The notes: generated from the letters alone by a model not told the origin. 64,000 nucleotides of DNA from Candidatus Enterousia sp. (GCA_045613445.1 JAZLAZ010000026.1:2674-66673); one strand, 5' to 3'. Positions 25,223-52,497 are shown, counted from the first letter of the stretch. Numbers and translations: made by a program.

Positions 25223-25861
25223 ATGAAACATCTTGTATCATTATGTGCGGTTTTAACATTGGTATCTGCATGTACAACAGTAAATCCATATACAGGTCAA
25301 ACCCAAACAGCCAAAGCAACATGGGGAACAGCAATTGGCGCAGCAACAGGCGCATTGATTGGCAGCGCACACAGTGGCAAAGATGCATTGATTGGTGGAT
25401 TGGCGGGTGCTGCAATCGGTGGTGGTGTTGGGTATTATTTGGATGCCCAGGCGGCAGAACTGCGTGCAGAATTGGCGTCCACAGGTGTACAGGTTGTTGA
25501 ATCAGATGACAGTATTCGATTGATTATGCCTGGCAATATTACATTTAAAACAGATTCAGCAGATATAAATTCATCTTTCTATCCTGTATTAAATTCTGTG
25601 GCCAAAGTGTTAAATAAATACAGTAATTCAACAGTACTGGTATCTGGTCACACAGATAACACAGGCAGTGCAGAATATAATTTGAATCTGTCAAAAATGC
25701 GGGCACAATCAGTTGCTGCATATCTGAAGGGGCAGGGCGTAAAATCAAATCGATTTGAAGTTTTGGGAATGGGGTATTCAAATCCAATTGCATCAAATGA
25801 TACAACAATTGGTCGTGAACAAAACAGACGCGTTGAAATCAAAATTATTCCAAATAAATAA
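25223..25861 (+). CDS. OmpA-family lipoprotein with glycine zipper (YiaD-like)
   Basis: AAGGAG SD, lipobox VSAC, NPYTG, Gly-zipper, GHTDNTGS..YN..LS..RA.SV, NRRVEI. Confidence 0.9.
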   Translation: MKHLVSLCAVLTLVSACTTVNPYTGQTQTAKATWGTAIGAATGALIGSAHSGKDALIGGLAGAAIGGGVGYYLDAQAAELRAELASTGVQVVESDDSIRLIMPGNITFKTDSADINSSFYPVLNSVAKVLNKYSNSTVLVSGHTDNTGSAEYNLNLSKMRAQSVAAYLKGQGVKSNRFEVLGMGYSNPIASNDTTIGREQNRRVEIKIIPNK

Positions 25862-25886
25862 AAAATCCCCAATTGGGGATTTTTTT
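25860..25886. terminator. bidirectional terminator
   Basis: AAAAAATCCCC-AATT-GGGGATTTTTT; same core as 56600-56628. Confidence 0.85.
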
Positions 25887-26844
25887 AGATATCTTCCAAA
25901 ATATATTTTAATTCCATCATATCATCTGGCAATTTTGCTTTGAACTTCATTTTCGCGCCAGTTACAGGATGGATAAATTCCAAAACTTCTGCATGTAACA
26001 TTTGACCATTGTGAGTTTTCAAAAATTCTAATAAATCTGCATCTTTCACAGTCCCAAGTTTTGCAGCACCACGACCATACAGCGGATCGCACAAGACAGG
26101 AAATCCATGGACAGACAAATGTACACGAATCTGGTGAGTGCGACCTGTGAATAATGTGCATCGCATTTGTGATATGCCCGCGCGTGACCATGCGTTTACA
26201 ACAGATACTTCGGTATGGGCTGGTTTGCCCCCAGATTTCACCATTGTCATTTTTTGGCGATTGCGTGAAGAGCGGGCAATGTTTCCAGTGATATCTGCTT
26301 CTTCCCAGTTTGGAATTCCCCATACAAACGCGATATATTTGCGTGTTAAATCGTGTTCAGAAAAAGTTTTGACCAGTCCACGAAATGCTGTGTCTGATTT
26401 TGCGAACACCATAACGCCACTGGTATCTTTGTCCAGTCTGTGTACAACGCCAGGTCGCACATCGCCGCCCAACGCAGACAGATGTGTGTGCGCCAAAATA
26501 TTTTGCACAAATGTACCTGTTTTGTTGCCAGCAGATGGATACATAACAATTCCGCGAGGTTTATTTATAACAATGATATCATCGTCTTCGAACAAAATAT
26601 CTAAATCAAAATCCGCAGATATATTTTCTGTTGCGATGTCAGTTTTGATGTCTGGGATTTCGACAACAAAAATATCGCCAATACGAATTTTTTCAGAAAA
26701 CTTTACCGTACTTCCGTTTGATCGTGTTACATTAAATTTTTGAATTTCACTGCGTGAAAATTCAGGCATGTTTGCTGATAAAAACTTATCAACCCTTACA
26801 ATTTCATCTGTATCAGATACTGTAAATTCACGAATTTGTACCAT
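25885..26844 (-). CDS. rluD: 23S rRNA pseudouridine synthase, RluA/RluD family
   Basis: RVDKFL S4-like start, INKPRG, RPGVVHRLDKDTSG, TGRTHQIRVH, QMLHA. Confidence 0.88.
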   Translation of the reverse strand: MVQIREFTVSDTDEIVRVDKFLSANMPEFSRSEIQKFNVTRSNGSTVKFSEKIRIGDIFVVEIPDIKTDIATENISADFDLDILFEDDDIIVINKPRGIVMYPSAGNKTGTFVQNILAHTHLSALGGDVRPGVVHRLDKDTSGVMVFAKSDTAFRGLVKTFSEHDLTRKYIAFVWGIPNWEEADITGNIARSSRNRQKMTMVKSGGKPAHTEVSVVNAWSRAGISQMRCTLFTGRTHQIRVHLSVHGFPVLCDPLYGRGAAKLGTVKDADLLEFLKTHNGQMLHAEVLEFIHPVTGAKMKFKAKLPDDMMELKYILEDI

Positions 26845-26853
26845 AAAAAAACC

Positions 26854-27315
26854 TTACTTATATTCTTGCCAATCTGGACCCACCGTGCAATCAGACAAAT
26901 CAATTGTCAATTCACGCCCTGTGCCTTTGGGGGTGCATGTAATTATACCTGTTGTTGTTTGGTCGTCTGCATCGCGTGATGCGTTCATGTATGCAAACTT
27001 GATTTCGGTTGGTTCTGCAACGCATGCGATACGCAAATGTTCATGGTTTTGTCTGTTTGGTCCGACCCATACGCGTACACCGTCGCCCAAACCATAGCAT
27101 GGAAACCCGTCCAGATAATATAAAACCAAACCCTTTTTTACCAATTTTGAATCAGAAATAAAAGTTCCGCGATATTCTGACAGTGTCAATCCAGTTACAG
27201 CTTCCCAATCTGTGCTGGTTGAAAATATGCTGATTCTTGGTTGTGGTGTGCTGTCTGCTGCAAAAGTTGTATTTGCAACAAAGATGCCAAACAAGGCCAA
27301 AATTATTTTATTCAT
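26854..27315 (-). CDS. exported hypothetical protein (4 Cys)
   Basis: Signal peptide MNKIILALFGIFVANTTFA; ATGA overlap with the upstream gene. Confidence 0.65.
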   Translation of the reverse strand: MNKIILALFGIFVANTTFAADSTPQPRISIFSTSTDWEAVTGLTLSEYRGTFISDSKLVKKGLVLYYLDGFPCYGLGDGVRVWVGPNRQNHEHLRIACVAEPTEIKFAYMNASRDADDQTTTGIITCTPKGTGRELTIDLSDCTVGPDWQEYK

Positions 27316-27839
27316 TTTTTTGTATCCTGTGCTACTTCAAAGTTCATCAGTTTTGCAGAAATTTTTTTTACGCCATATGGTTGCTGTGCCAGCATGTGAT
27401 TAAATTTTACTGACGCGCCTGCATCCAGCAATGTTGCCGAAGGCATAAATTTTTGTTGTGCCAATACTTTTCCATTTTCATCAGATGAAATAATCAACAA
27501 ATCAGGGACACCATAAATCTGGTCAGAAACATTTGTTACTGTTCCATTGACAACGATATGTTTTACACCACTTTCATCAGTTGAAGTAGTAATGTTTTCA
27601 ACAGATGCAATCAAAGGTCCCATTGTTGCTTTTTTTGCCTGATGTTGTGTGATAACGGCAATAGTAAATATTATCGCAGATAGCAATGCACAAAGTGATG
27701 CAAAGAACATCAACCACGCATTTTTACGATTTTCAATCACAACGCGCCATGTATGGCCACAAATTGCACATTTTACTGGTGTGTTTGGTACACTGTCTAT
27801 GTTGTATTCTGTTTTACAAAAGTCGCATTTAATTTTCAT
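27312..27839 (-). CDS. zinc-ribbon + TM + DUF3426-like protein
   Basis: CDFC..Y.....VKCAICGHTW zinc finger, one TM, V.G.V.N.S....VP.L Ig-like domain. Confidence 0.8.
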   Translation of the reverse strand: MKIKCDFCKTEYNIDSVPNTPVKCAICGHTWRVVIENRKNAWLMFFASLCALLSAIIFTIAVITQHQAKKATMGPLIASVENITTSTDESGVKHIVVNGTVTNVSDQIYGVPDLLIISSDENGKVLAQQKFMPSATLLDAGASVKFNHMLAQQPYGVKKISAKLMNFEVAQDTKK

Positions 27840-27859
27840 GTCTTTATATATACCATAAA

Positions 27860-29176
27860 TTATTGTAATTGCAAATTTTGATATTTTGCGCGTACGCGTT
27901 GTTGAATTTGTGTAATTGCGTTCATAAAGTCAGCAACTGTTGCATTTTTATTTGTTGCGACTGTTCCAAATATTTGTCCTGCATATGTAGAAGCATCGCC
28001 TTCGGTGATGTTTGCCAGTGTTGCCATACGATTTAATTCAACAAAAGATGCGTCTGAAAAATGTGCGTTACTGGATTTAGTGTCCCAAAAATATGCAGAA
28101 TTAGTTGAATCTTGAATTTTGTCATATACATGTAACATTGGCGTCATAGAACCAGCAAATCCGACTGTTACAAATATGGCACTTATATGACCGCCTGTCA
28201 TATCCAAGGACTGATTTATTTTCATTGTTGAAATACCATCTGTTGTATCAACATACAGTCCGCCCAGTGTTAAATTAGATACCCATAAATTTTCAGCGGT
28301 CAAAGAAGAAAATTTTGCTGTATCTGCCAGTGAAAAATTACCATTTACCTCGATTGTTTTTGCGTCTGATGATATCATACCAGAAACGACGGCATATTTA
28401 CTGTTATAAACATTATCGATGTTTGTTCTGTTTTGGAATATTAAATCGCGTACTGCAATTTTGCTGGCGGATATATCTTCGGTAAAATTAGCGCGATTTA
28501 TATCAAAGAATTTTGCGTTTATTATATCATGCCCAGCCATATTTAATGCGGATAGCATTTGTGCATCGTCTGGATTTTCAGATGGTAAACGCCACAAATA
28601 TGATGCAGTATCTGTTTTTACATTTGTTGTTTCAATAATACCGTTTTTTATATTTGTCCCCAGTTCGATTGCGTCTGTATGCCAAGTGCCAAAAGATCCA
28701 TATGCATGTGTTTCATCAATAAAGCCCATTGACCCCCCAGACATGTTTACGATTTCGCGCGTTCGTATGGGGGTTATATCATCAGATGCACGTACTATAA
28801 CGCCTTGCAATGAAGCCCCATTTATTGAATCTGATGTTTTTAATATTCTGATTTGATATTTTTCATCGCCATCTGCCAATATTGAATCTGGTAATCCGTA
28901 TTCTGACAAATCAGATAAATTTACGCGAGTTATATTCCTGCCGACTGTTTTTAATAAATCTTCGCGATTATCGACGATATGCCTTTCCAGTGCATCTTGT
29001 ATTAAATGCATCTGGTTGGTTATTGCGATATTTTCAGCGCGTTCAACAGTCTTTTGATGATATTGAAATATGAATGGTATGATGACAGCAGCCAATGCAA
29101 TACTAAGCAGCAGTTCAACCAGCATACTTCCACCAGAATTATTTTTTATTGCAAAGATTTTTTTATTATGTTTCAT
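27860..29176 (-). CDS. PilV-like minor type IV pilin, paralog 3
   Basis: Prepilin site G/SMLVE plus hydrophobic helix; YLWRLP...QMLSALNMAGHDIIN resembles the PilV constant-region motif. Confidence 0.7.
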   Translation of the reverse strand: MKHNKKIFAIKNNSGGSMLVELLLSIALAAVIIPFIFQYHQKTVERAENIAITNQMHLIQDALERHIVDNREDLLKTVGRNITRVNLSDLSEYGLPDSILADGDEKYQIRILKTSDSINGASLQGVIVRASDDITPIRTREIVNMSGGSMGFIDETHAYGSFGTWHTDAIELGTNIKNGIIETTNVKTDTASYLWRLPSENPDDAQMLSALNMAGHDIINAKFFDINRANFTEDISASKIAVRDLIFQNRTNIDNVYNSKYAVVSGMISSDAKTIEVNGNFSLADTAKFSSLTAENLWVSNLTLGGLYVDTTDGISTMKINQSLDMTGGHISAIFVTVGFAGSMTPMLHVYDKIQDSTNSAYFWDTKSSNAHFSDASFVELNRMATLANITEGDASTYAGQIFGTVATNKNATVADFMNAITQIQQRVRAKYQNLQLQ

Positions 29177-29183
29177 GTTTTTT

Positions 29184-30380
29184 CTACTTGTAAGTTAGCT
29201 GCCATCCGTATTTTGTAATGGCATCAAACTCGTCGTTTGCTGGCATGTTTGGTCGATTTGCACGATTTATTTCAAATTTTGAAAACAGCGGTGGTCTGGT
29301 CGAAGGAAAAACCCAATTACCAATTCGCAGTGGTGGTGTTGTTGACATCAACAACTCGCCAGATATGGTCAAACCAAAGTCGTTATAAAATATCATTTCT
29401 TCACATGATACAAATGGTGTTAAAACATTGCTGGCACTGATACTGGTAAAGCCGTCAACAGAACGCGAAGAATCCGATTTAACAATCATGTTATTAGCAA
29501 CTTTTATAGAGTTTAATATATTCGCTTTATCTGTTATAATTCGCCCAGTTGTTGTAAATCCAGAACCGTTCAGGTTATCTGCGTACATGTTTTTGAATCC
29601 ATACATGTCTCCAGATACGCGCAAACTGTCAAAGTGTACATCTTCGCCATCCATATTTGCACCAGATGAAAAGTAAACATTTTCTGCAGAAACTTCATCT
29701 GCACTGACAAATACTGCATCTGCGTTTGCAATGCGCGCAGAACTTGCAGTGGCTGTTGCAACATTGTGAATATGGTGTTTATTCATATTCAAATCGCGTT
29801 GCATAACATTAAAATCATCCTCGCCAGATGTTGCACGATGCAGGTATTTAGAAGTGTCTTCGCCAGATATTGTTCGTGTAATTCTGTATATTAAATCACC
29901 GGTTTTGAAATCGGGTGCTGCGACAGCCCATGTATTGCCATATGCGATACCGTCATCGCCGACAACTGCTGCATCAGAACCGATATGTTTTGCGATTTGG
30001 GACGCGTGCAGATAAGAATCATCGATTTTGAATGCCAGATATACATCTGTCATACTAGTACCAATAACAGGATATTTATCAATGAACCCAGCAAATGCGT
30101 CTGGAGAAATTGTTGCTAAATCAGCATCATCTAATTTGATTTGTACTGTATCAGGCCATTTATCTTGATTTGTGCGAACAAAGTTCAATACAGAATCATG
30201 TGTTGAGATTATAGCTTTGGCGATTGCGATGTCGCGCAAAGTCTGATTGGTCTTTGTCATTTGTTTGTAAACAAACGGGGTTGCCAGTGCGACAATTGCC
30301 ATTGCCAACAAGACTTCGGTCATGCTGGCACCACTATTTTTCGTGTCAAAAATTTTTGTGTTAAATACAGCCACTGCCAC
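29184..30380 (-). CDS. PilV-like minor type IV pilin, paralog 2
   Basis: Prepilin site G/ASMTE; YLHR....DFNVMQRDLNMNKHHIHNV motif; overlaps the upstream paralog by 20 nt (exact start uncertain). Confidence 0.7.
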   Translation of the reverse strand: MAVAVFNTKIFDTKNSGASMTEVLLAMAIVALATPFVYKQMTKTNQTLRDIAIAKAIISTHDSVLNFVRTNQDKWPDTVQIKLDDADLATISPDAFAGFIDKYPVIGTSMTDVYLAFKIDDSYLHASQIAKHIGSDAAVVGDDGIAYGNTWAVAAPDFKTGDLIYRITRTISGEDTSKYLHRATSGEDDFNVMQRDLNMNKHHIHNVATATASSARIANADAVFVSADEVSAENVYFSSGANMDGEDVHFDSLRVSGDMYGFKNMYADNLNGSGFTTTGRIITDKANILNSIKVANNMIVKSDSSRSVDGFTSISASNVLTPFVSCEEMIFYNDFGLTISGELLMSTTPPLRIGNWVFPSTRPPLFSKFEINRANRPNMPANDEFDAITKYGWQLTYK

Positions 30381-31716
30381 CTGCCATTAAACATTTTTTT
30401 ATATCGATTCTTTTTTCAATTCGTTGCCAGTAAACATATTGACATATCAAGTACTGTGACAAAGACTGTTTGTTATACACGCCTTCCAGTTCAGTAATGA
30501 TTGATTTGCAATCGATAGTTGAATCATCATCTGATTTGATGTCTTTTATAATTTTGAATGCATCATTATTTATGTCTGAAATCAATACATCTGGTAACAA
30601 TGATGTGCCTGCAGGTCTGATATCTAGTATTACTGCTCCAGATTGTCCATTGTTTAATGCGCCAGATGTTTGGTCGCGCATAGTTATATTTGAAGTGTAT
30701 AATGTTCCTGTTTCAATGCCCGATTTTGAATTATATGTCAAAGTATCTTCATCAATATAAACATCTTGTCCGCGTGTTGTTATCAGGTACGAAGATATGT
30801 CCAATCTTTCTGTGCTGAAATTGATATTGTTTGTCACAACAGAACCGCGTATATTCCAATTCGCAGGTCCCGTAAAAGAAGTGTGTCCTGCGGTCATAGA
30901 CAAATCATGAATTGAAACATCAAATGCTGTAAAATTACCAGTATCACCCAACATAGAAATTGATTTAACATTTGCAGTATCTGTATACAGCGTGCCGCGT
31001 GTCAGTGTCAATGCAGCTTCACCTGTTTTTGATTGAAATACACTTTTTTCTGCATTTATCTGTTTGATTTTGTTTCTTGCTTTTTTACCAGATTCTGTGC
31101 CAGATACAGACAATGTTCCAATTTCTGCGGATTCAAAATCACTGCGTACAGCAAATAAATTAGCAACATTATTGATTGAAAAATCACCCATGTCTAAATC
31201 AGTCAAGAAACCGCTGTTTTCAAGATTTGTTTCATTTCTGCGTACAACATCGGAAAAAATATCATTCAGTTCAATTCCGATATCAATCGCATCATCGTTT
31301 GGTGCTGCATAAAAACCAATTCTGCGTATCAGTTCCGCTTGTTGCAGTCCAGACAGCTTGCCACCTGTCAATTTAAGGTATGCAGATATCACAGATGGTG
31401 TTTTATGAATAATCAGTGCAATATCTTGACCCATTGGTGTTCTGGGAACAAAACCCAGTGGCAATCCATAAGGCTCCAGTATGTCTGCAAAATCATTGCC
31501 TGCAATAACGGTTGTATCATAAGATAGATTTTTTGAATTTTCACGAATAAAAATTCGTGCGGCTGTTTGTGCTGTTTCGATCTGACGCGTGGTTGCGAAC
31601 ATGCGTGTGTCAATATTTCTGTCGTTTAATTCGCGCGACAATATTGGGATAAAAGCAAATATCAATCCCAGTGCCAGCAGTGCTTGCAATAAAAAGTTCC
31701 CGCGTTCTTGGTGCAA
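30361..31716 (-). CDS. PilV-like minor type IV pilin, paralog 1
   Basis: GGAGG SD with TTG start; prepilin site G/NFLLQ; L.PYGLPLGF..RTPMGQ; FLTDLDMGDFSINNV; Cys-containing C-terminus. Confidence 0.68.
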   Translation of the reverse strand: MHQERGNFLLQALLALGLIFAFIPILSRELNDRNIDTRMFATTRQIETAQTAARIFIRENSKNLSYDTTVIAGNDFADILEPYGLPLGFVPRTPMGQDIALIIHKTPSVISAYLKLTGGKLSGLQQAELIRRIGFYAAPNDDAIDIGIELNDIFSDVVRRNETNLENSGFLTDLDMGDFSINNVANLFAVRSDFESAEIGTLSVSGTESGKKARNKIKQINAEKSVFQSKTGEAALTLTRGTLYTDTANVKSISMLGDTGNFTAFDVSIHDLSMTAGHTSFTGPANWNIRGSVVTNNINFSTERLDISSYLITTRGQDVYIDEDTLTYNSKSGIETGTLYTSNITMRDQTSGALNNGQSGAVILDIRPAGTSLLPDVLISDINNDAFKIIKDIKSDDDSTIDCKSIITELEGVYNKQSLSQYLICQYVYWQRIEKRIDIKKCLMAGGSGCI

Positions 31717-31862
31717 AATGCCCCCTCCTACTTATGTACAAGCATAGCAACAGAAAAAAATTATTGCAATCGCTTTTAAGATGATTTAATATCAATTCCG
31801 TTGAGTTTGATGATGTGTAAAAACGCATCGTCGCAGATAATTTCCTGTTAAAAAGAAAAGAT

Positions 31863-32168
31863 ATGCAAAATAAGAAAAATCAATCTTCTGTTGGACAGAT
31901 GATTCAGCGTTGCCATAAGTGGCGTCAAAAAAGAAAACAATACATTGATCAAGCGCGTCAGGTATCTGATGAAATTGAACGTGAACGCTTGTTGCAGACG
32001 GCGGAACATTATGGACGTATTGTCAGTGCAGAACAAGAAAAAATAGATTCAATACGCGATCCAAAAGAAAAAGCTGCTGCCGAAGCCGAAGTTTCTGCTG
32101 CTGAAAATGCCGAAAATGCAGATGACGAAGAAACAGGGTTTCCTGATTTTATAACTAATTTGAACTAA
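31863..32168 (+). CDS. DUF4167-like protein
   Basis: Y..QAR....E.ERE.LLQTAEHYGRI motif with an acidic tail, typical of the alphaproteobacterial DUF4167 family. Confidence 0.7.
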   Translation: MQNKKNQSSVGQMIQRCHKWRQKRKQYIDQARQVSDEIERERLLQTAEHYGRIVSAEQEKIDSIRDPKEKAAAEAEVSAAENAENADDEETGFPDFITNLN

Positions 32169-32174
32169 TGATTT

Positions 32175-32198
32175 AACGCATCTGTTTAGATGCGTTTT
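32175..32198 (+). terminator. intrinsic terminator
   Basis: AACGCATCT-GTTT-AGATGCGTTTT. Confidence 0.75.
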
Positions 32199-32253
32199 AT
32201 TTGTTGAAATTTCAGGTTGTTTTGCTATGCTACACCAAAAGGAAGATTACAGC

Positions 32254-33810
32254 ATGGATACGAATTATACAGTTTTAGCGCGCAAGTATCGCAGCCAAGA
32301 TTTTAAGTCACTTATCGGGCAAGATGTTTTGGTTAAAACATTGACAACTGCGATTGAAACATCGCGTATTGCACACGCATATATTTTTACGGGTATTCGT
32401 GGAACTGGTAAAACCAGTACTGCGCGTATTTTTGCCAAGGCGTTAAATTGTTTGTCTTCGGATCGTGCAACTGCGACGCCATGTGGAACATGTGAAAATT
32501 GTCGTGCAATTGCTGCGGGTCAGCATATTGATGTTATGGAAATTGACGCTGCGTCACATACTGGTGTTGATAATATGCGTGATATTTTGGATGCTGCGCA
32601 ATATCGTCCAACAAATGGTCGATACAAGGTATATATTATCGACGAAGTTCATATGTTGTCGACATCTGCATTTAACGCATTATTAAAAACACTGGAAGAA
32701 CCTCCTGCACATGTAATATTTATTTTGGCAACCACAGAAATCAGAAAAGTACCGGTTACAATTTTATCGCGTTGTCAGCGATTTGATTTGGCACGTGTTT
32801 CGATTGAAACATTGAAAAAGCACTTTGCATGGATTGCACAACAAGAAAATATTGAATTGACTGATGGTGCAAATGATTTGTTGGCGCGTGCTGCGGATGG
32901 TTCCGTTCGTGATGGATTATCTTTGTTGGATCAGGCGATTGCACAAACAGGTGGCCATGTTGACGAAGCGGCAACACTGGATATGTTAAAACGCGCAGAT
33001 CGTGTTGTTGTTGTTGAATTGATGAAAACTATATTATCTGGTGATGTTGCTGCTGCATTGGACAAGGTTGATGCGATATACAACAATGGTGCAGATTTAT
33101 CAATGTTGCTGACGGACATGATGGAATGGACGCATTGGGCAACACGTATGCATCCTGCGTTACATGCTGGTGCGACAAACAATTCGCCGTATACAGCGGA
33201 TCAACGTGAACAGATTTTGAATATCAATTCGCGAATATCTGTGAATACATTATCCAGAATATGGCAGGTTATGGTTGCAACTGTCCCAGAAATGCAGGCT
33301 GCCAGCAATCAAAAGCAGTGTTTTGATATGTTTATTATCAGGTGTATGCACATTGCAGATATGCCATCGATACCCGAACTATTAAAACAGCAAGAATCTG
33401 AAAATCGTGTTCGTGATGTAAAAAATATTTTGGCGGACAGAATATCAAATACACCATCAGAACCTGTGCGTCAAACATTGTGTATAACATGTGCAGCTGA
33501 TTTGGGTTCTGCGTTGCAGTCAACCAGGGAAATGCTATTATATTCTTATTTTAGCAGTAATATCGAAGTTTCTGAATTGTCAGATGGTGTGATTAAATAT
33601 TTTGATCGCAAAGGCGATGCAGATTTTGCACATAAATTGTCTGTGTGGTTATCTGATAAAACTGGTAAAACATGGGTTTTAACAAAACTGACAGAATCAA
33701 CAAATGCACAAACAATCTCTGAACAAAAACAAGAAGAGTTGGAATCTGATCCATTGGTTGCCAGTGCGATGAGTTTGTTTGAAAACGCAGAAATACTAGG
33801 GGTAAAATAA
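32254..33810 (+). CDS. dnaX: DNA polymerase III subunit gamma/tau
   Basis: YTVLARKYR, GIRGTGKTS, Zn-binding CGTCENC, IIDEVHMLS, SRCQRF; start 32254 follows AAGGAAG. Confidence 0.96.
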   Translation: MDTNYTVLARKYRSQDFKSLIGQDVLVKTLTTAIETSRIAHAYIFTGIRGTGKTSTARIFAKALNCLSSDRATATPCGTCENCRAIAAGQHIDVMEIDAASHTGVDNMRDILDAAQYRPTNGRYKVYIIDEVHMLSTSAFNALLKTLEEPPAHVIFILATTEIRKVPVTILSRCQRFDLARVSIETLKKHFAWIAQQENIELTDGANDLLARAADGSVRDGLSLLDQAIAQTGGHVDEAATLDMLKRADRVVVVELMKTILSGDVAAALDKVDAIYNNGADLSMLLTDMMEWTHWATRMHPALHAGATNNSPYTADQREQILNINSRISVNTLSRIWQVMVATVPEMQAASNQKQCFDMFIIRCMHIADMPSIPELLKQQESENRVRDVKNILADRISNTPSEPVRQTLCITCAADLGSALQSTREMLLYSYFSSNIEVSELSDGVIKYFDRKGDADFAHKLSVWLSDKTGKTWVLTKLTESTNAQTISEQKQEELESDPLVASAMSLFENAEILGVK

Positions 33811-34268
33811 TGAGATGTGAATCTGGTCGTTCTTTGATTGAAGTTATCGGTGTAATGGCGATTGCTGGTGTTATGACGGTGTCTGCGTTGGGTGTGTATA
33901 ACATGTTGCGCGCAAACCAGGCACGCAGTATTGCCAGTATTGAATTAAAACAGATTGCAGAAAACACAAAACTGTTACTAGAAATGCGTGGGTCTTATGA
34001 CGGTGTTTCTGTCAATTATTTGATTAAATCCGGTGCGTTGAAATCTGACAAAGCCCCATTGGGCGGTGATGACTGGTCTGTGACATCGGGTTTTGATGGA
34101 TTGACTTTTTCGATAAATCTGGTTGATTTAACAAATGGAGAATGTAATTATTTTGCATCTAAAAAACCGATATGGGCTAAAACCCTATTGGTAAACGGAT
34201 TTGAAACAGATGTTTCCAGCAACTGTTTTGACTCTGATACGAACCAGATATCATTTATTGTTGAATAA
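33810..34268 (+). CDS. type IV pilin, PilS-like
   Basis: ESG/RSLIEVIGVMAIAGV prepilin motif, 152 aa, C-terminal Cys pair; TAATG coupling to dnaX and to the next gene. Confidence 0.8.
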   Translation: MRCESGRSLIEVIGVMAIAGVMTVSALGVYNMLRANQARSIASIELKQIAENTKLLLEMRGSYDGVSVNYLIKSGALKSDKAPLGGDDWSVTSGFDGLTFSINLVDLTNGECNYFASKKPIWAKTLLVNGFETDVSSNCFDSDTNQISFIVE

Positions 34269-34942
34269 TGAAATTATGTAAAATAGTTTCTTTACTGTTT
34301 TTATTATACGGATGCGTTTCGTACAGCAGTCCGGATCGTGCTACATGGTCTGCATACTTGCACGGGGCCAGTTTTACAGATATGACAGAAATATCGCGTG
34401 TCGCAAAACGACCAGTCTATCTTGGTGCGGGCGGACAATTGATATCATCTGTTGTTGATTCTGATGGAAAAATGGAATACGGGGACAAGGTGTCAAACGA
34501 TAATTTATTAGCGCGTCAGTATATGTCAGCATTGGAATACGAACTGTATGATGCATTACGCAAACCCGGGATTTCTGTTCAACGCGCTGGTACAGATGTT
34601 ACGATTATTTTAGTGCGCGATGCGATAATGGAACTGTCTGTTGCGGATATATCGCAAACAGGCGATGATACATTAAAAACAATTGCGAAGATATTAAAGA
34701 AATACGACGCAACTTTCTTGGAAATTGCGGGCTATACAGATTCAATGCGCGATAAAAATGCGGCAAATGCATTATCACTGGATATGGCACAACGCGTTGG
34801 TGTTCATTTGTCACAACACGGTATAAATACTGCGCGTATGTTCATTGTTGGTCGTGGTGCTGCGCGTCCAATTGCTGCCCAGGATGATATTGGTCGTTTG
34901 ACCAATCGTCGTGTTGAAATCAGGCTTGCGCCAGCAAGATAA
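34268..34942 (+). CDS. OmpA-family lipoprotein (divergent)
   Basis: Lipobox LYGC; IAGYTDS..N.LS...A..V; GRG...PIA; NRRVEI. Confidence 0.8.
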   Translation: MKLCKIVSLLFLLYGCVSYSSPDRATWSAYLHGASFTDMTEISRVAKRPVYLGAGGQLISSVVDSDGKMEYGDKVSNDNLLARQYMSALEYELYDALRKPGISVQRAGTDVTIILVRDAIMELSVADISQTGDDTLKTIAKILKKYDATFLEIAGYTDSMRDKNAANALSLDMAQRVGVHLSQHGINTARMFIVGRGAARPIAAQDDIGRLTNRRVEIRLAPAR

Positions 34943-36306: not shown

Positions 36307-38730
36307 ATGAAAAAATTGCTGACTTGTTTTTTTGCAATTACGATGTTTGCACCCAGTGTTTACGCGGCTGATGGTGCTGTTTCGCGTGTAATTCCAACGG
36401 GTGAAAATGTAAAGGCTGGAACGACACATTCTATGTCGCGTTCATCTGTTTCGCGTGTTGCGGTTCGTGATGTTACGCAAACACAGTCTGCAACAGAAAA
36501 TAATATTCGCAGCACAGTATCACGTGTGTTTGCTGGTACACCTGCATCAGATACGGAAACGACAAAAAAGACTGTTTCTCGTGGTGGTGTTATTGCACGT
36601 CAATTGGGTATTGAAAAAACATCTGGTCGCGGATTGGATGCGGCGGTAAATACGGTTGGTCGCAATGAACGCGTTTCATCTGCCAGCATAAACAGCAATC
36701 CATCTGTTCGTCGTGCGGGACTGGTTTTGCGCCCAAGTACAGCAGAGGTTGGCGGTCGTGCCACAATTGGTGATACAGGGGTTCAAACAGGTTCAAATGT
36801 TGATGAACATGTGCGTTCTGTAAAATCGCGTGCAAGTAATGTTGCTGTCACAGCAGAAAGCATTCAAAATGCCAAAGAAATTCTGGAAAATACGGCTGAT
36901 TTGAACAAATCTTGCCAAGAACAATACAACGAATGTATGGATCAGTTTTGTGCAGTCGTTGATGCAAATCAAAAGCGTTGTTCTTGTTCGTCAAATATTA
37001 CAAAATATGCCAAGGTTGAACAGGCGGTCAAAGATGCAAATGTTCAGTTAAATGATGTTGCACAACGTATTCGTTATGTTGGTTTATCTGCTGATGAAAT
37101 TCGTGCCATTATGACCGAAACTGAGGCCGAAGAAGCGCTGTCTGGCACGCGCGATACATCTGAAACACGTGATATGTTGACTGAAATAGAAAAATTGATA
37201 CGCGACCCAAAATCATCAACGACATCATATTCGTCTGGCGACACTGGTTTTGGTTTGGATCTGGATTTGGATTTTTCATCAGACAGTGCAGATATGTTCA
37301 GCCTAGATTTCTTGAATACAGATAACAGCAGTAATTTATCTAACTTGCGTGGTGCAGAATTATACAGCGCTGCGAAAAAGCGTTGTAACACTGTATTAAA
37401 TGCATGTAAACAGGCAGGGTCTACGACCCAGCAAATTACTGGTAACTATGATCTGGCGATTGATAAAGACTGTATTGCATATGAACAAGGTCTGACCAAG
37501 ATGAACGAAACATTGGTTGGTAATGTTCGCAGTGCAAATTTAATGTTGCAAAAGGCGCGTTTGGCAGTATTGCAAAATAAAAATCAATATGATGCCAAGG
37601 GTTGCATTGGTGCGCTGGAAACATGTATGACAGATGATATGGTATGTGGCGAAGATTATTATAAATGTGTTGATCCAACCAAACAATATATCGATGAAAA
37701 CGGTAATGTTGTTTTGGGACAACGAATATCGGATATAACCGCATTTATGTCAACATATAATAATGCCGGTATAAATCAGGCATTCTTGACGAATGCATAT
37801 GGAACAACTATCGATGAAACTAGTTGCAAGAACAATAATGATGGTCGTTGTGTTGTAAAATACCTGTTGACCAAGATTGGCACAGGACAAAAGGTTACAG
37901 ACGAAGGATTGTGTCGCGCTGTTCTGGATAAATGTCAAAATTATACATATGATTCCGAAGGTAAGTATAAACCATATAATGATATTGTTGTAAATTATGT
38001 ACAGCGTGCGATGGTAAATATTCGTGCTGCACAGTACAACATTATTTCTGATTATGCGTCCAGTTGTATGGTTGATATTGCAAATTGTTATAATCAACAG
38101 GTAACACAGGTGAATTCTTGGTCTTCGTCGGCCAGTTTGAACAGTGTTTATAATGTAATGCGTGGTGCATGTCGCAATGTTGCATTGACATGTGCATATG
38201 CCGTTTTTGATAAGGCTGCAGATCCAAACCTGTGTGATAATGAAGAAAATTGTATCAATTCTGTATCTGAAATGTTCTATAACAGTTTATTGTGCGACGA
38301 TGGCAAGGTATATGACGCAGAAACGAAAAGTTGTATCGATCAGGAAATTGTATGGCGTGAATTGCCGGTGTATTATGGTGATAGTTCAGCTTCATCAGAA
38401 CCCGCGTTTACAACAGTTAAATGCAGAACGGACAAGTCGATAAATGTTGGATTGACAGATACACAAATACAAACAGCAATTGATAAAGAACTGTTTAGCG
38501 GGCCTGTTACGTCTGTCAAAGCAGCTGATTGGTATTTTTGTTACAGCGGGGTCAATGGTTTTGGAACAGAGTGCAAACAAAATACAAGTGACAATTGCGA
38601 ATATGATCCAACTGATCCAGATGAAAAAGTTGAAGAACCGATGCAATGTATTACGCCAATGGATGTGAATCTGTTGATTATAACGCCGGAATATTGTGAA
38701 TCTGGAAAAAGTTTGTTGTTACGTCCATAA
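36307..38730 (+). CDS. large exported cysteine-rich protein A
   Basis: Signal peptide, S/R/V/T-rich N-terminal region, about 30 Cys in recurring Cx6C..CGxDYxxC units. Confidence 0.75.
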   Translation: MKKLLTCFFAITMFAPSVYAADGAVSRVIPTGENVKAGTTHSMSRSSVSRVAVRDVTQTQSATENNIRSTVSRVFAGTPASDTETTKKTVSRGGVIARQLGIEKTSGRGLDAAVNTVGRNERVSSASINSNPSVRRAGLVLRPSTAEVGGRATIGDTGVQTGSNVDEHVRSVKSRASNVAVTAESIQNAKEILENTADLNKSCQEQYNECMDQFCAVVDANQKRCSCSSNITKYAKVEQAVKDANVQLNDVAQRIRYVGLSADEIRAIMTETEAEEALSGTRDTSETRDMLTEIEKLIRDPKSSTTSYSSGDTGFGLDLDLDFSSDSADMFSLDFLNTDNSSNLSNLRGAELYSAAKKRCNTVLNACKQAGSTTQQITGNYDLAIDKDCIAYEQGLTKMNETLVGNVRSANLMLQKARLAVLQNKNQYDAKGCIGALETCMTDDMVCGEDYYKCVDPTKQYIDENGNVVLGQRISDITAFMSTYNNAGINQAFLTNAYGTTIDETSCKNNNDGRCVVKYLLTKIGTGQKVTDEGLCRAVLDKCQNYTYDSEGKYKPYNDIVVNYVQRAMVNIRAAQYNIISDYASSCMVDIANCYNQQVTQVNSWSSSASLNSVYNVMRGACRNVALTCAYAVFDKAADPNLCDNEENCINSVSEMFYNSLLCDDGKVYDAETKSCIDQEIVWRELPVYYGDSSASSEPAFTTVKCRTDKSINVGLTDTQIQTAIDKELFSGPVTSVKAADWYFCYSGVNGFGTECKQNTSDNCEYDPTDPDEKVEEPMQCITPMDVNLLIITPEYCESGKSLLLRP

Positions 38731-41602: not shown

Positions 41603-44600
41603 ATGGCATTTCTCAAAAATACGATAAGTTTATTGGCGGTTTTCTGCGTAGTTCCTGCGGCATTTGCTGCAACGGCGCGCCCCAGCATAATGAATACTGC
41701 GACTGCGGTGTCGGCATCTGGTGCTGTTCGTCGTATGCCAACTGTTACGGCCAAGATTTCACAAAGTGCTGCGGCGGCACAAAAAACCAGTTCTTCATCA
41801 TTGATGGATAATGTTGAATGTATTGATGCATATACTGAATGTATCAAGGGTGATGATGCGTGCGGTTCCGATTTTTCAGAATGTACAACAAATGTACTGT
41901 TCCATGCACAAATGCCAGATTGTATCAGTGTTTTGGCCCAATGTGGAAATGATGGTATAAGCAGTTTGTTTGGTACATCTGATACTACATTGCTGTCAAA
42001 TGTTGAATATACAAACGAAGATGGCGAAGTAACAAAATATACATATCCAACAGTAGGCAGTGTTTTGGGGCAAATGATAACTGCTGCGGAAATTGAAAAT
42101 AAATATGATACACAAACATGTGTAAAGCGTTATATGAACTGCTTGCACAAGGATGATGTTTGCGGTGAAAATTTTGAATTATGTACATCTGCCAAAGAAT
42201 TTAAGAAACAGGCATTATTCTGTGATTCAACATTGGCACGTTGTCAGGCCGCAGGTGTGACAGAATTATTGGGTAAATATCCATGGTCACCAATGCGTGC
42301 AGGTGATACTGTTGGTGGACGTGTCGCAACAGAAATTGAAAATGGTGCTGATTTGGCTGCATTGAATGCTGTGTCTACTTGTTACAAGATTGTTGATAAC
42401 TGCTTTGTTCAGGCATGTCAGGCCAATCCATTGCGTTGTATCGAAGGTACATCTGTATCTGCGGTTCAGGCAGCCCAGGGTATTGTTGGCGAAGCTGGCT
42501 TGGAACTGGACACCGTTGGTGAAGCAGATGTATTGTCATCCAGTCAGATAAATCGTTATCTGCGTTCAAGTTGTGCGGATACAATCGGTTCAAACAAATA
42601 TTGTCATATGACATTTTTGGGTAAAACGCCATCCAAAAATGATTTAGCGGATCCAGATTATATTGATGAAGTATTTTCATCTGCACACAATGATCGTAAA
42701 TCAATCATTGCTTCTAAAATTCAAGGCTTGATGCAAGATTTTGATAAAGAAGCCAAGGGCAAGTGCAGCGATGCAATTATGCAATGCGCAATGCGCACAT
42801 GTGGTGGTGGTTCTGGTGCTGCATGCTATACCCAGGTGTTCAGCAGTGCTGGCGAAAACACAATCAATGGCGATGCGACATATGACGAAATTGCCACAGG
42901 TTGCAGTGCGATTGCAAATACAGATCCAAATTGTCTGTACGCATTTGAGTCTGTCAGAAATGATGACTACAGCTATAACTATGTTGCAGAAGATGCGTTT
43001 TCAACATTATTCCCAAAGAAAACATCCACATCTGTGGATCCAATTGGTGTTGTTGCAGCATTAAATTCATCATTATCATTGAATTATAATGAAGCGGCGA
43101 TTGCAAATATGAAAAAACAGTGTCAATCTGTTGCAACCAGCTGTGTAAAGTCATTGTGTGGTGAAGATTATGCAAATTGCTATCGCAACCGTACGGATAT
43201 CTATTCTAACCTGACAAATACAGGCGATGCAGCGTTTGATAAATCAATGAACAAGGTTGGTGGTGTTCTGGATTATACAATTGTATTGGGATTGTGTGTC
43301 GATACTGTTAAAAATGCACCAATCTGTGAAGAACACTTGGCAATCGAACGTGCAAAATATAAAAAAGCAGATAATACCACAGCTGGCTGGGGCAGTGCAA
43401 CAAACACTCGTTCTGGCTGGTATGATGCAGGTTCTGCCACAGTTGTAAAGACTGAAACAGAACAAATCCAAGATACAGATGAAAATGGTAACAAGTTGTG
43501 CAGTGCTGAAAATGGCATGGTTGGTATCTGCAATACTGTTGATCCAGACGGTACATTATACAGTGAACCTGTGATGATATCATATACAACATATGTACAA
43601 TCCCAGGCGGCGAATTCATTGTTCAAAGATTTGATCTTTGACCTGGAAAAAGAAGCCCAGGCAAAATATAACGCCAAACTGACAAAACAGCAAAACGACT
43701 GTATTGCTGCAAACAACGGCGGTATTATGGGGAACAAAGACATTGCGTCAACATATATGTGGGCCAAGTTGAAAAATAACAAGGTGCCAAGCACATACCC
43801 AAGTTCTGGTTTGAAACCAAATCAGTTTGTGGCCAGTAATGAATTGTATGGTTCGTTCTGTCGTATCCGTGTAAACTTGCAGTCTGATGATAAGTATATC
43901 CAAGACGCAATTGCGAACGGTACAGATTGGGCAACAACATACTTTGCTGCCGGTGACGCATTTACATGCGGTTCATGGATACCAAATGACAAATTACAAG
44001 AATTGGCCAATGCAGCGGGTGCAGATGCACGTGCAGATGCCACGGCATCACAACCAAAAATTGCAGGTTGGATGGCGGCATTGGGCGCAGTTGGATTGGG
44101 TACAGGCGGTGTATTCGTTGGTGATGCAATCCAAGGTGGTTCAGTATTCGGTGGCTTGAACAAAAAGTCCAAGGTCAACGCTGCCAATGAAAAATCTTGT
44201 GAAGAATTGGCTGAATTGTATGCACAGTACAATCAAGCAGGTTATGCAAATCTTATCTTTGGAAGATTGAAAGATACGGGTACTCGTAACAATATCGAAG
44301 AAGCAAAGAAATTTGTTGGTTACGCAAATGATACTTCCTTTACAAAGAAAGAGGTTGATGAAATTTGTGGCAAAGATGTTTATACAGAAGCTACTACTGT
44401 TAAAGGAGAAGAACAGACATGTCAAAATAACACTTACGGTACTTACAAAGAAGGAAAATGTTATTTAAACGCGGATGCAGTACGTGAAGAGGCTCATAAT
44501 CAGGCTGTTGAGAAAGTAAATGCGTTGGCCGCTTTGTGTAATGTTTCTGATGAATTGACTGAACAGAAAAACGGCACATGGTGGAAACAACATGGTGGTC

Positions 44601-44806
44601 AGTTGCTTGGTGGTGTTGTTGGTGCAGGTGCAGGTGCAGGATTGGCATACGCAATCACCAAGAGTTTTCAAGATGCCGAACTGGACAAGGCAGAACAGAC
44701 GGCCATCCAAGAATTTATGGACAATGTTGGTTCAAAAATCCATTGTTACATCGGTTCAGAAGAGGTTGGTACATACGGTGACGTAATATCAACAAGTATG
44801 GAATAA
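41603..44806 (+). CDS. large exported cysteine-rich protein B
   Basis: Signal peptide, about 40 Cys in the same motif as protein A, two Gly-rich hydrophobic segments near the C-terminus. Confidence 0.75.
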   Translation: MAFLKNTISLLAVFCVVPAAFAATARPSIMNTATAVSASGAVRRMPTVTAKISQSAAAAQKTSSSSLMDNVECIDAYTECIKGDDACGSDFSECTTNVLFHAQMPDCISVLAQCGNDGISSLFGTSDTTLLSNVEYTNEDGEVTKYTYPTVGSVLGQMITAAEIENKYDTQTCVKRYMNCLHKDDVCGENFELCTSAKEFKKQALFCDSTLARCQAAGVTELLGKYPWSPMRAGDTVGGRVATEIENGADLAALNAVSTCYKIVDNCFVQACQANPLRCIEGTSVSAVQAAQGIVGEAGLELDTVGEADVLSSSQINRYLRSSCADTIGSNKYCHMTFLGKTPSKNDLADPDYIDEVFSSAHNDRKSIIASKIQGLMQDFDKEAKGKCSDAIMQCAMRTCGGGSGAACYTQVFSSAGENTINGDATYDEIATGCSAIANTDPNCLYAFESVRNDDYSYNYVAEDAFSTLFPKKTSTSVDPIGVVAALNSSLSLNYNEAAIANMKKQCQSVATSCVKSLCGEDYANCYRNRTDIYSNLTNTGDAAFDKSMNKVGGVLDYTIVLGLCVDTVKNAPICEEHLAIERAKYKKADNTTAGWGSATNTRSGWYDAGSATVVKTETEQIQDTDENGNKLCSAENGMVGICNTVDPDGTLYSEPVMISYTTYVQSQAANSLFKDLIFDLEKEAQAKYNAKLTKQQNDCIAANNGGIMGNKDIASTYMWAKLKNNKVPSTYPSSGLKPNQFVASNELYGSFCRIRVNLQSDDKYIQDAIANGTDWATTYFAAGDAFTCGSWIPNDKLQELANAAGADARADATASQPKIAGWMAALGAVGLGTGGVFVGDAIQGGSVFGGLNKKSKVNAANEKSCEELAELYAQYNQAGYANLIFGRLKDTGTRNNIEEAKKFVGYANDTSFTKKEVDEICGKDVYTEATTVKGEEQTCQNNTYGTYKEGKCYLNADAVREEAHNQAVEKVNALAALCNVSDELTEQKNGTWWKQHGGQLLGGVVGAGAGAGLAYAITKSFQDAELDKAEQTAIQEFMDNVGSKIHCYIGSEEVGTYGDVISTSME

Positions 44807-50521: not shown

Positions 50522-51781
50522 ATGCATCGTATTATAATCTCTGTATTGGCTGTAATTATTGCATTGCCGGCGTTTGCCAGTGCGCGTTTGCCAGTGGTAA
50601 ATGTTGCATCTGGTGGTGTATCTGCGCGCGCTGCATTTGGCGAAGGGGAAATAAAATCGTCATCAAAAGTACAAAAGACGGCAAAAAAATCTGAATCAAC
50701 CAGAACTAAACGCGTTGTCGCACGTGCGGCAAAACCTGTTGTGCAAGCGGCTGATTCTGGTGAAAACATCATTGCTTCGAATGATGTTTTGATGCCAAAT
50801 CGCCCAAGTGCTGATTTGTGGGCAAAAAGTGATGTTGCATTGCGTATGCCAAGTCCAAACGAATTTTCTGTATATCGTACAGATTCCCAGTTGCCAGAGG
50901 AGAGAATTGACCAATCGCGTCCATCTGTTGTTCGTGTTGCGTCATCAGAAAAGTCTGATGATGTTGCGTCTGTTACAGATAGTCAGGTTGCGCGTTTGGT
51001 CGATTTGCAAAAAAAAGCTTCTGATAGTGTTCGTACTGTATCGCCGCGTGTGATTGCTGCGCCAATTACGAAAAATACTGAAGCGCCCGTACATGTTGCA
51101 TCAGTTGCAGATGTTGAACCGGAACATGTGTCATTACGCAGAATGGTTGTTGATATGGATGCAGACGATGTTATCGTGCGTCATGTTGAAAAAAATATGT
51201 CACCTCGTATCGCCAGTGTTCGTGATGATATGACAAAAATGACACCAAATGAATTGCGTAATGCGTTCAGAAAGACATTTCTGTCTGAAAATAAACACTT
51301 GTCTACATATTCTGTTGATGATCGCTTTGATGTTGCCAGCGATATGTCTTCGATGGTCGAAGGTTTTACTGCCAAGGCGGATTTGTCCGAAGGCAGTGGT
51401 ATCAGACCATTAGAAATAAAAATAAAATTTCGTGATGATGATTCTGCGTTGTCGCGTGCAAACTATAATTTGTTGACGGAATATGCTGGTATTGTTGTGA
51501 ATAAACCGACGCGTGCGATTCAAATTGCGATTCCACAACAGATGACAGTAAATAATGATGTCAGAAAATTGGCTGCACGTCGTTTGGCGATTGTTGAACA
51601 AGTTTTGACAGATAACGGTGTGTCAAAACAAAGAATTGTCCCTGTGTTATCAGATCGTAAAGAATCAGGATTTGTTCTGCGTATTATTTCTGGTGATCAG
51701 TATGATGTATTGACCCAACAACAGCAGAATATATTTGGTGATACCGTGGGTAAAAAAACATATAAAAGTATGTCGTGGTAA
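50522..51781 (+). CDS. exported protein with low-complexity N-terminal region and degenerate OmpA-like C-terminal domain
   Basis: AAGGA SD, signal peptide, SARAA/RVVARAA-rich region, C-terminal I.F....S.L..RKLAARR...V...L...GV...RI. Confidence 0.6.
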   Translation: MHRIIISVLAVIIALPAFASARLPVVNVASGGVSARAAFGEGEIKSSSKVQKTAKKSESTRTKRVVARAAKPVVQAADSGENIIASNDVLMPNRPSADLWAKSDVALRMPSPNEFSVYRTDSQLPEERIDQSRPSVVRVASSEKSDDVASVTDSQVARLVDLQKKASDSVRTVSPRVIAAPITKNTEAPVHVASVADVEPEHVSLRRMVVDMDADDVIVRHVEKNMSPRIASVRDDMTKMTPNELRNAFRKTFLSENKHLSTYSVDDRFDVASDMSSMVEGFTAKADLSEGSGIRPLEIKIKFRDDDSALSRANYNLLTEYAGIVVNKPTRAIQIAIPQQMTVNNDVRKLAARRLAIVEQVLTDNGVSKQRIVPVLSDRKESGFVLRIISGDQYDVLTQQQQNIFGDTVGKKTYKSMSW

Positions 51782-52497
51782 AGATACTGAATAAAATTAT
51801 TGGATTTTTGTTTCCGCCGGCGTGTCCATTGTGTGACACGCCGGTATCAACACATGGTGAATTATGTGCAGATTGTTGGATATCTATAAATTGGATTGAT
51901 AATCCGAAATGTGTAAAATGTGGTTATCCTTTTCCCGAAGATTTAGATTTGGGTGGCATACCGCTTTGTCCGACATGTGCGTCTGGTAAATGTGAATTGG
52001 ATTGGGTACGGTCTGCATGTGTGTATGACGATGCATCACGTTCTGCAATGCTACCGTTTAAGCATGGTGGTTGTGTGCAGTATGCGCGATTTATGTCGCG
52101 TGCGATGATGTGGGCGCTGCGTGATATTGATGTTGATATAGATGTTGTAATGCCTGTGCCATTGGCAAACAGGCGTTTGTTCAAACGCGGGTATAATCAG
52201 GCAACGTTATTGGCGCGCCCGATTGCGCATGTGTTAGGTGTTGCGATGGATGTAGGTTCTATAAAACGTATTCATAGGCCGGATATGGGGCATAAAAATG
52301 CACGCGAACGAGCAGCAAATATCCATGGTGTTTTTAGTGTTGTAAACGCAGATAAAATTCGTGGCAAAAGGATATTACTGGTTGATGATGTAATGACGAC
52401 TGGTGCAACATTTTCAGAATTGCGTCGTGTGTTGGTGCGCGCGGGCGCTGCATCTGTATATGGTGTTACATTTTGTCGTGTTGTTCGTGCGATTTAG
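51775..52497 (+). CDS. comF: ComF family competence protein
   Basis: Double zinc ribbon CPLC/CADC/CVKC/CPTC, PVPL, RGYNQA, LLVDDVMTTGAT. Confidence 0.9.
   Translation: MVKILNKIIGFLFPPACPLCDTPVSTHGELCADCWISINWIDNPKCVKCGYPFPEDLDLGGIPLCPTCASGKCELDWVRSACVYDDASRSAMLPFKHGGCVQYARFMSRAMMWALRDIDVDIDVVMPVPLANRRLFKRGYNQATLLARPIAHVLGVAMDVGSIKRIHRPDMGHKNARERAANIHGVFSVVNADKIRGKRILLVDDVMTTGATFSELRRVLVRAGAASVYGVTFCRVVRAI

Follow-up and report, generated by a model that had tools for sequence, protein, structure and literature searches.

Almost all that is known of PilV concerns conjugative plasmids and islands, where it is the adhesin switched by a shufflon. The locus described here raises the question of what three PilV-like genes do when they stand side by side in a chromosome with no shufflon. 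The window was a stretch of 64,000 nucleotides from Candidatus Enterousia sp. (GCA_045613445.1 JAZLAZ010000026.1:2674-66673), a gut alphaproteobacterium with a genome of less than 1 Mb. The three genes, named A, B and C, lie at positions 27,860 to 31,716. By sequence comparison they are solidly placed as ancient paralogues of the PilV family, homologous to it yet outside the boundary of the curated family. They may encode the tip or initiation module of a chromosomal R64-type type IVb pilus, a reading that is given slightly less than an even chance.

Each of the three products has a prepilin-type N-terminus. A has a five-residue leader followed by G/NFLLQ (the slash marks the cleavage site), with Q at +5. 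B has a leader longer than that of A and the sequence G/ASMTE, and C has G/SMLVE. Each cleavage motif is followed by about 20 hydrophobic residues. The class III (prepilin) signal is complete in B and C; A has the glycine and helix, with Q at +5. When all six frames of the 64-kb window were scanned for a G, four residues, an E or Q and then a hydrophobic stretch, only four open reading frames (ORFs) were returned, namely A, B, C and the small pilin gene of Table 1. An AGGAGG lies six bases 5' of the TTG start of gene A. A and B overlap by up to 20 bases at the end of A, and elsewhere the gaps between the genes are at most 20 bases.

Relatives were metagenome-assembled genomes titled Candidatus Enterousia or uncultured Alphaproteobacteria. 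A seven-sequence query over genome contigs gave 219 matching stretches, 145 of them relatives, and 80 loci were kept. Complete copies numbered 72 for A (four cut, four past the contig end), 76 for B (four cut) and 78 for C (two cut). The TTG start of gene A was found in 60 of its 72 complete orthologues. The cleavage motif was G-[NS]-F-x-x-Q in all complete copies of A, G-[AS]-x3-E in 76/76 copies of B and G-x4-E in 78/78 copies of C (65 by regular expression and 13 rows with N at +1). An earlier reading made by a model from the DNA alone (the sequence-only reading) had described three co-oriented genes of 398-451 amino acids with prepilin motifs and with Q for E at +5 in the first of them. 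The ORFs were found on the minus strand exactly where it had placed them, and the Q held in 72/72 orthologues of A.

The locus was highly conserved in its composition. Wherever the contig reached, the order was dnaX (opposite strand), orf101, A, B, C, D, E, rluD. The motif scan found exactly three large prepilin ORFs and one small one in 64/80 loci; 11 of the others had fewer at contig ends, and five had an extra match in an unrelated, distant ORF. No loss, gain or duplication of A, B or C was seen in any locus covering the site. A variable number of paralogues, which the sequence-only reading had named as the finding that would speak against it, was not seen, the triplet being constant wherever the contig covers the site. 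Identity to the window was 55-87% for A, 53-79% for B and 52-79% for C, compared to 71-92% for RluD and 74-96% for DnaX. This conservation, like the homology, is solid. In one locus (L041:13332-16801) the block of dnaX, small pilin, ompA and skp stands after rluD and not upstream of A, which is the sole rearrangement seen in the 80 loci.

The relationship to PilV was visible for C in plain searches as well as by profile-profile comparison, and for A and B by profile-profile comparison only. Against a seven-sequence PilV alignment hhalign gave 96.8% for A, 97.4% for B and 99.5% for C. A tblastn search with C against 72,556 plasmids matched 206 records (best E value 6e-5, residues 34-333 covered), and 19 of the 20 matches listed were under annotated pilV genes, with one under 'hypothetical protein'. 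BLASTP of C against a Serratia plasmid PilV gave E 7e-13. A phmmer search with C against 1.84 billion representatives returned just 136 proteins at E <= 0.001, and 11 of the 84 long matches scanned carry Shufflon_N at up to 348 bits. The Pfam family Shufflon_N (PF04917) was matched by two of four C orthologues at 28.2 and 27.8 bits (cut-off 27.5), while a third scored 27.0 and the fourth had no match. A precomputed PF04917 domain was present in 6 of 120 listed relatives. NCBIfam gave nothing significant for A, B and C, just traces of a pilin N-terminus, with a weak GspI match at the N-terminus of B (E 0.009). Sequence and profile searches of the PDB with all three returned only pilin N-terminal helices (Geopilin, PilA) and chance matches.

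Among the three, paralogy is plain for B and C, which BLASTP aligns at E 2e-14 with 25% identity over 357 residues. A matched B by BLASTP at the N-terminus only (E 0.002). By hhalign the A family aligned to the C family at 98.3% (E 2e-14, 209 columns) and the B family to the C family at 99.6% (E 2e-23, 288 columns). A quick maximum likelihood tree of the N-terminal domain was built from 58 rows, with Shimodaira-Hasegawa-like approximate likelihood ratio (SH-aLRT) support only and rooted by choice on the plasmid PilVs, which form a separate clade (99). The A clade (98) takes in one distant relative, P0257. The B clade (100) stands beside proteins of other lineages (95), and the C clade is weakly supported (56). 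By this topology the lineages of A, B and C predate the genus. The label 'PilV-like' given by the sequence-only reading was thus borne out, for C by tblastn and phmmer and for all three by comparison of profiles. Its suggested check with the shufflon N-terminal domain gave a divided answer: the Pfam model was negative for all three window proteins and the PilV profile-profile comparison positive for all three families. The shared mid-protein motif that it reported was confirmed and occupies the alignment columns of the conserved PilV motif, as was also the case in the alignment of C to the Serratia protein.

The similarity to PilV ends shortly past this shared L-x-M-x-G-x-x-I-x-N motif. The C-terminal halves of A, B and C have no profile similarity to one another (probability <= 1.6%), and Pfam, NCBIfam and PDB searches identified neither a DNA-binding nor any other known domain in them. 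The module of A has four conserved cysteines. Conservation was even along the three proteins (0.43-0.78 per 30-residue window), with no hypervariable C-terminus. The ratio of nonsynonymous to synonymous rates (dN/dS) was 0.066 in the N-terminal and 0.076 in the C-terminal half of A (49 pairs), 0.083 and 0.098 in B (23 pairs) and 0.082 and 0.084 in C (16 pairs), calculated by the Nei-Gojobori method for pairs at least 80% identical, with dS of about 1-1.5 and near saturation. Both halves of all three proteins are under purifying selection. No sfx-like or other shufflon repeat sets were found in 25500-32500 and no recombinase domain among the window ORFs. The proposal that the triplet stands instead of a shufflon was therefore supported by the absence of sfx-like repeats, of a recombinase and of a hypervariable C-terminus, and the dN/dS check it had asked for on the C-terminal regions gave 0.076-0.098, purifying as in the N-terminal halves. 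The short beta-strand repeats it had described there were not recovered, as profile self-comparison of the C-terminal halves gave no off-diagonal match (probability <= 0.2%).

The closest known proteins are the PilVs of IncI1 and IncI2 plasmids (R64, R721, TP114). Both have a prepilin N-terminus, with a proline 18 residues past the cleavage site, and a homologous pilin domain of about 200-250 residues at the N-terminus; both are about 400-480 amino acids in size, and each is paired with a small pilin of PilS or PilS-like type. The Enterousia genes differ in being chromosomal, between rluD and dnaX, whereas plasmid pilV ends the pil operon next to the prepilin peptidase. They are three fixed genes and not one gene with switchable 3' ends, they have no sfx repeats and no Rci, their C-terminal halves are conserved and the window proteins fall under the Pfam threshold. 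In TP114 the constant N-terminal part of PilV has 345 amino acids and the shufflon-varied C-terminus 69-113, its place in the pilus being left open (PMC9045228). A chromosomal PilV-type minor pilin is also described in Pseudomonas aeruginosa, where PilV2 belongs to an R64-like type IVb pilus on the integrated element PAPI-1 and its C-terminal 97 residues bind partner-cell lipopolysaccharide (PMC5297154). PAPI-1 has a single pilV2 in a complete 10-gene pil cluster on a transferable island, in contrast to three genes apart from the machinery in a housekeeping setting. The locus is thus best regarded as a member of the PilV family whose location, copy number and missing shufflon set it apart from the rest.

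A fourth prepilin gene, absent from the finding of the sequence-only reading, follows dnaX immediately, on the strand opposite to the triplet and about 2 kb away from it. It was present in 69/69 loci reaching its position. G6, E11, C112 and C139 were invariant in 21 sequences. The Pfam family PilS (PF08805) scored 19.6 bits on the window protein and 16.4-20.5 bits on 6/21 orthologues, all under the 22-bit cut-off. By hhalign its family aligned to the major pilin of an IncI2 plasmid at 92% (E 6.7e-7, 144 columns). BLASTP against the Serratia plasmid PilS was not significant, nor was tblastn against plasmids, in which the only four matches (E 5) were all on major pilin genes. The small pilin is a candidate major pilin of the same pilus as A, B and C. 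The OmpA-family lipoprotein gene that follows it was kept with it in 69/69 loci and its product is a possible envelope anchor.

Two of the related loci carry assembly genes beside the triplet. In L010:1-3384 and L036:1-3324 (minus in locus orientation) skp is followed by genes in the R64 order pilO-pilP-pilQ. The PAP_PilO protein scored 32 bits in L010 and 26.2 in L036 (cut-off 26.7), the PilP-family protein matched TIGR03021 at E 4e-7, just under the cut-off, and the T2SSE ATPase scored 183 bits with 33% identity to the Serratia plasmid PilQ. R64-type machinery is therefore carried by at least some of the genus. Both loci stop within the ATPase gene, and more pil genes may lie beyond.

For the architecture and function of the system, we infer the following arrangement. 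A prepilin peptidase encoded elsewhere would cleave all four pilins, and the small pilin would build a type IVb filament. A, as the sole paralogue with no Glu5, would be the first and topmost subunit. B and C would dock under A via their Glu5, A, B and C together forming the initiation complex and the tip. The three unlike C-terminal modules would make one composite adhesive head, in place of the switchable C-termini of plasmid PilV, and this head would bind a conserved surface structure of a partner cell or host. The product of gene D would help to place or assemble the machine.

The proposal draws on other type IV filaments. Glu5 is dispensable in the subunit that starts a filament, and in most systems a single minor pilin of the set is without it (PMC5207764). 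Heterotrimeric tips are known or modelled in type II secretion, in type IVa pili and in the Tad system KilL-M-N of Myxococcus (PMC12075869). As in GspI-J-K, PilI-J-K and KilL-M-N, different minor pilins stand side by side with typically one that lacks Glu5, and in those systems they form one tip complex, proposed or shown, with the variable domains exposed (PMC5207764, PMC12075869). The difference is that these belong to other pilin families, whereas the Enterousia proteins are similar-sized paralogues of one family, with the E5-less gene first and Q in place of a hydrophobic residue. CofB and TcpB are also large modular type IVb minor pilins, with a pilin domain and C-terminal modules. They initiate assembly, carry the binding site and have a secreted partner in the same operon (PMC6048534, PMC5207764). 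No sequence similarity to them was detected in the PDB searches, and they differ from the three diverged genes found here, one of which has no Glu5. The solved tips of the toxin-coregulated pilus (TCP) and of CFA/III are homotrimers of the locus's single minor pilin (PMC13533445, PMC6048534).

Covariation of evolutionary rates was examined in 57 species by a partial Mantel test, after housekeeping divergence had been removed by a quadratic fit. The residual distance correlation was 0.77 for A-B, 0.77 for A-C and 0.75 for B-C (each p = 0.001). The small pilin correlated with A, B or C at 0.42-0.57. Correlations with A or C were 0.54-0.56 for D, 0.56-0.61 for OmpA, 0.31-0.33 for E and about 0 for orf101. 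A linear version with 45 species gave 0.84-0.85 for the A/B/C pairs. The rate covariation of A, B and C fits a common constraint and is no proof of contact. A putative heterotrimer with A as initiator is consistent with the invariant Q5 of A only, with the tight gene coupling and with this covariation.

Several points weigh against the proposed pilus tip. At the level of homology, Shufflon_N gave no match to window A, B or C at E up to 1, and at E <= 0.01 it matched 0/20 rows of A (19 orthologues and P0257) and 0/20 orthologues of B. In tblastn searches of the plasmids B reached pilV in 8/8 records, but only at E 0.4-3, and A reached no pilV. No secretin, platform protein, ATPase or prepilin peptidase was found in the 64-kb window. 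With two plasmid pil gene sets as queries, tblastn over the window and the 80 loci gave just an ATPase, in L010 and L036, and no secretin, peptidase or platform protein; machinery genes were seen in only 2/80 loci. The available text of PMC12306168 records no pili for this lineage, of the order Rs-D84, and type IV pili only for another lineage. The gene of A stands first, at the 5' end of the cluster, and the +5 residue of A is a polar Q, where the GspK type has a hydrophobic residue and a gene in 3' position (PMC5207764). Measured against a capping pilin of GspK/PilK type, A alone of the three is without Glu5 and is the largest (451 amino acids), but the nature of its +5 residue and its place in the gene order differ; the sequences showed no relationship to GspK. 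The PilV of a Serratia proteamaculans plasmid (L001:11911-13344) has S at +5, while the IncI2 PilV of L082 has E. Loss of Glu5 is thus not peculiar to a capping paralogue, because the single-copy Serratia PilV lacks E5 too. Species pairs in the covariation analysis are non-independent and dS is near saturation, and shared exposure or a shared target can give covariation with no contact. The three unrelated C-terminal modules fit three separate adhesins equally well.

The last point belongs to the main rival, which is considered rather unlikely. It holds that A, B and C are a hard-wired adhesin repertoire, alternative PilV-type tips that are each homo-oligomeric, as CofB and TcpB are, on separate pili. 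Three specificities would then be present at once and no shufflon would be needed. The unrelated C-terminal halves favour this reading and match plasmid PilV, whose variants are alike except for the C-terminal segment (PMC9045228). In the solved type IVb tips a single minor pilin makes up the homotrimer (PMC13533445, PMC6048534), and in the tree the family of each paralogue is joined by separate relatives from lineages further away. Separate adhesins give no account of the loss of Glu5 in exactly one paralogue in 72/72 genomes, of the zero loss, gain or duplication at any covered locus, or of A, B and C covarying more with each other than with the small pilin, and the tight gene coupling suggests equal dosage.

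A DNA-uptake (competence) pilus or a secretion pseudopilus, in which the large pilins bind DNA or push a cargo such as the product of gene E, is improbable. A protein with a double zinc ribbon and a phosphoribosyltransferase domain is encoded in the window, an architecture which we take to be that of the ComF family of competence proteins, and this bears on uptake. The organism has been described as without many biosynthetic pathways and standard transporters (PMC12306168). Type IVb pili can also secrete an operon-encoded protein, such as TcpF or CofJ, which attaches to the trimer of minor pilins (PMC6048534), and E is small, secreted and just downstream. The sole detectable kinship is nevertheless to PilV, an adhesin binding recipient-cell lipopolysaccharide (PMC5297154), E covaries weakly with A and C, and the C-terminal modules yielded no DNA-binding or other known domain. 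Least probable of all is that the three are non-filament relics, pilin-derived envelope or surface proteins with the N-terminal helix as a plain membrane anchor: the window without assembly machinery, the absence of reported pili for the lineage in the available text of PMC12306168 and the sizeable residual correlation with the envelope proteins OmpA and Skp (0.51-0.68, linear analysis) would suit this, but a plain anchor needs neither the G at -1 nor the E/Q at +5 that are invariant in 72 to 78 orthologues per gene, a PilS-like small pilin of the same signature is kept alongside, PilO, PilP and the ATPase stand beside the locus in two relatives, and strong purifying selection in genomes of less than 1 Mb argues for a working system.

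The composite pilus tip can be extended to a more specific evolutionary proposal, which is tentative and as a whole somewhat unlikely. A single homotrimer-forming type IVb minor pilin would have been replaced, via an ancient triplication of PilV, by a fixed heterotrimer of one capping subunit that lacks Glu5 and two subunits that have it, each with a different head module. The tip would hold a partner cell. Either a plasmid device for mating pairs would have become a chromosomal symbiosis organelle, or it would have descended from one. Recognition of a partner cell is suggested by the PilV precedent and by a presumed partner-dependent lifestyle. The lineage, of the order Rs-D84, is described as having genomes mostly below 1 Mb, without the tricarboxylic acid cycle, respiration, flagella and standard transporters and with many biosynthetic pathways missing, and a partner-dependent lifestyle is considered probable for it (PMC12306168). 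A literature search over main texts found none on Enterousia pili and none on multiple PilV paralogues; a 2023 Enterousia paper (doi 10.1134/S0026261723603780) may bear on this.

The surface genes of these abundant uncultured gut bacteria carry the annotation 'hypothetical protein', and the locus is the first candidate attachment apparatus for them, with the C-terminal modules as candidate baits for the partner or receptor. A shufflon-free chromosomal PilV trio would be a natural intermediate, with the homotrimeric tips of type IVb pili on one side and the hetero-oligomeric ones of type II secretion, type IVa and Tad systems on the other. It would be a testable case of the diversification of a tip complex by gene duplication.

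The positions of the genes discussed and of further window features are given in Table 1. A-B-C-D-E-rluD is probably one transcription unit, with the pilin genes joined to the housekeeping gene rluD, because the gaps are at most 20 bases and the single strong terminator lies past rluD. The start of E overlaps the stop of D by four bases. G+C content was uniform over the region, and nothing pointed to a mobile element. An Rfam search of the window found two transfer RNAs only, none of them adjacent to the locus.

Table 1. Positions of the pilin locus, its neighbours and other features in the 64-kb window
Feature	Position	Strand	Length (amino acids)	Start codon	Description
Gene A (P0001)	30361-31716	minus	451	TTG	Modular minor pilin of the PilV family, own C-terminal module
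Gene B (P0002)	29184-30380	minus	398	GTG	Minor pilin of the PilV family, own C-terminal module
Gene C (P0003)	27860-29176	minus	438	ATG	Paralogue nearest plasmid PilV, own C-terminal module
Gene D (P0004)	27312-27839	minus	175		ZitP-like bitopic protein, candidate pilus-biogenesis factor
Gene E (P0005)	26854-27315	minus	153		Signal peptide, four Cys, no known family
rluD	25885-26844	minus			Housekeeping gene, probable end of the transcription unit
Terminator-like hairpin	25885-25860	minus			Only strong one on the minus strand, after rluD
Small PilS-like pilin (P0503)	33810-34268	plus	152		Six-residue leader, G/RSLIE, two invariant Cys
OmpA-family lipoprotein (P0504)	34268-34942	plus	224		Directly after the small pilin, then Skp
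Membrane protein cluster	71-1390	minus	400-480		Five adjacent genes together with the next row; polytopic, lysine-rich tails
Membrane protein cluster	1427-6655	plus	400-480		As above
Large protein	36307-38730	plus	807		Signal peptide, many cysteines
Large protein	41603-44806	plus	1067		No family match
ComF-like protein	51775-52497	plus			Double zinc ribbon and phosphoribosyltransferase domain

In the product of D a CxxC..CxxC zinc ribbon at the N-terminus is followed by a membrane helix and a DUF3426/FxLYD-like domain in the periplasm. The CxxC pair and the membrane helix were present in 79/79 orthologues. It scored 22.0 bits with TIGR02098 (cut-off 20.9) and E 2.7e-5 with PF13717; PF11906 (DUF3426) at E 0.018 and FxLYD at 22.3 bits (cut-off 23) were sub-threshold, and the PDB search returned generic zinc ribbons only. 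By described architecture it resembles ZitP of Caulobacter crescentus, in which a single membrane helix joins a CxxC..CxxC zinc ribbon in the cytoplasm to a DUF3426-type domain in the periplasm. ZitP occurs across the alphaproteobacteria, and pilus biogenesis depends on its DUF3426 domain (PMC5182063). ZitP differs from D in having 311 amino acids and in serving the Tad/Cpa pilus through CpaM. The four cysteines of E were present in 79/79 orthologues.

A number of other candidate relationships were tried and rejected. The PDB entry 3pet, a 'putative adhesin', was a chance match at E 1. An Atlas search with residues 185-451 of A had PilV clusters as its nearest result at 0.79, which is below the tool's stated noise level and serves as a lead only. 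A likeness of the mid-protein motif to a phage tail-fibre motif was considered and dropped, as PHROGs gave no tail-fibre match for A, B, C, two relatives of C or a plasmid PilV. A link to CtrA boxes was also dropped; the two matches in the window, neither near the operon, are fewer than chance expects.

Elsewhere in the window two large proteins, of 807 and 1067 amino acids, had no family match, and the signal peptide and many cysteines of the first suggest a secreted or surface protein. The five adjacent polytopic membrane proteins had no Pfam or NCBIfam match. A VirB6/TrbL-like identity was suspected for them and no support for it was found. Four of the five are distant paralogues of one another (BLASTP E 1.6e-9 to 4e-4).

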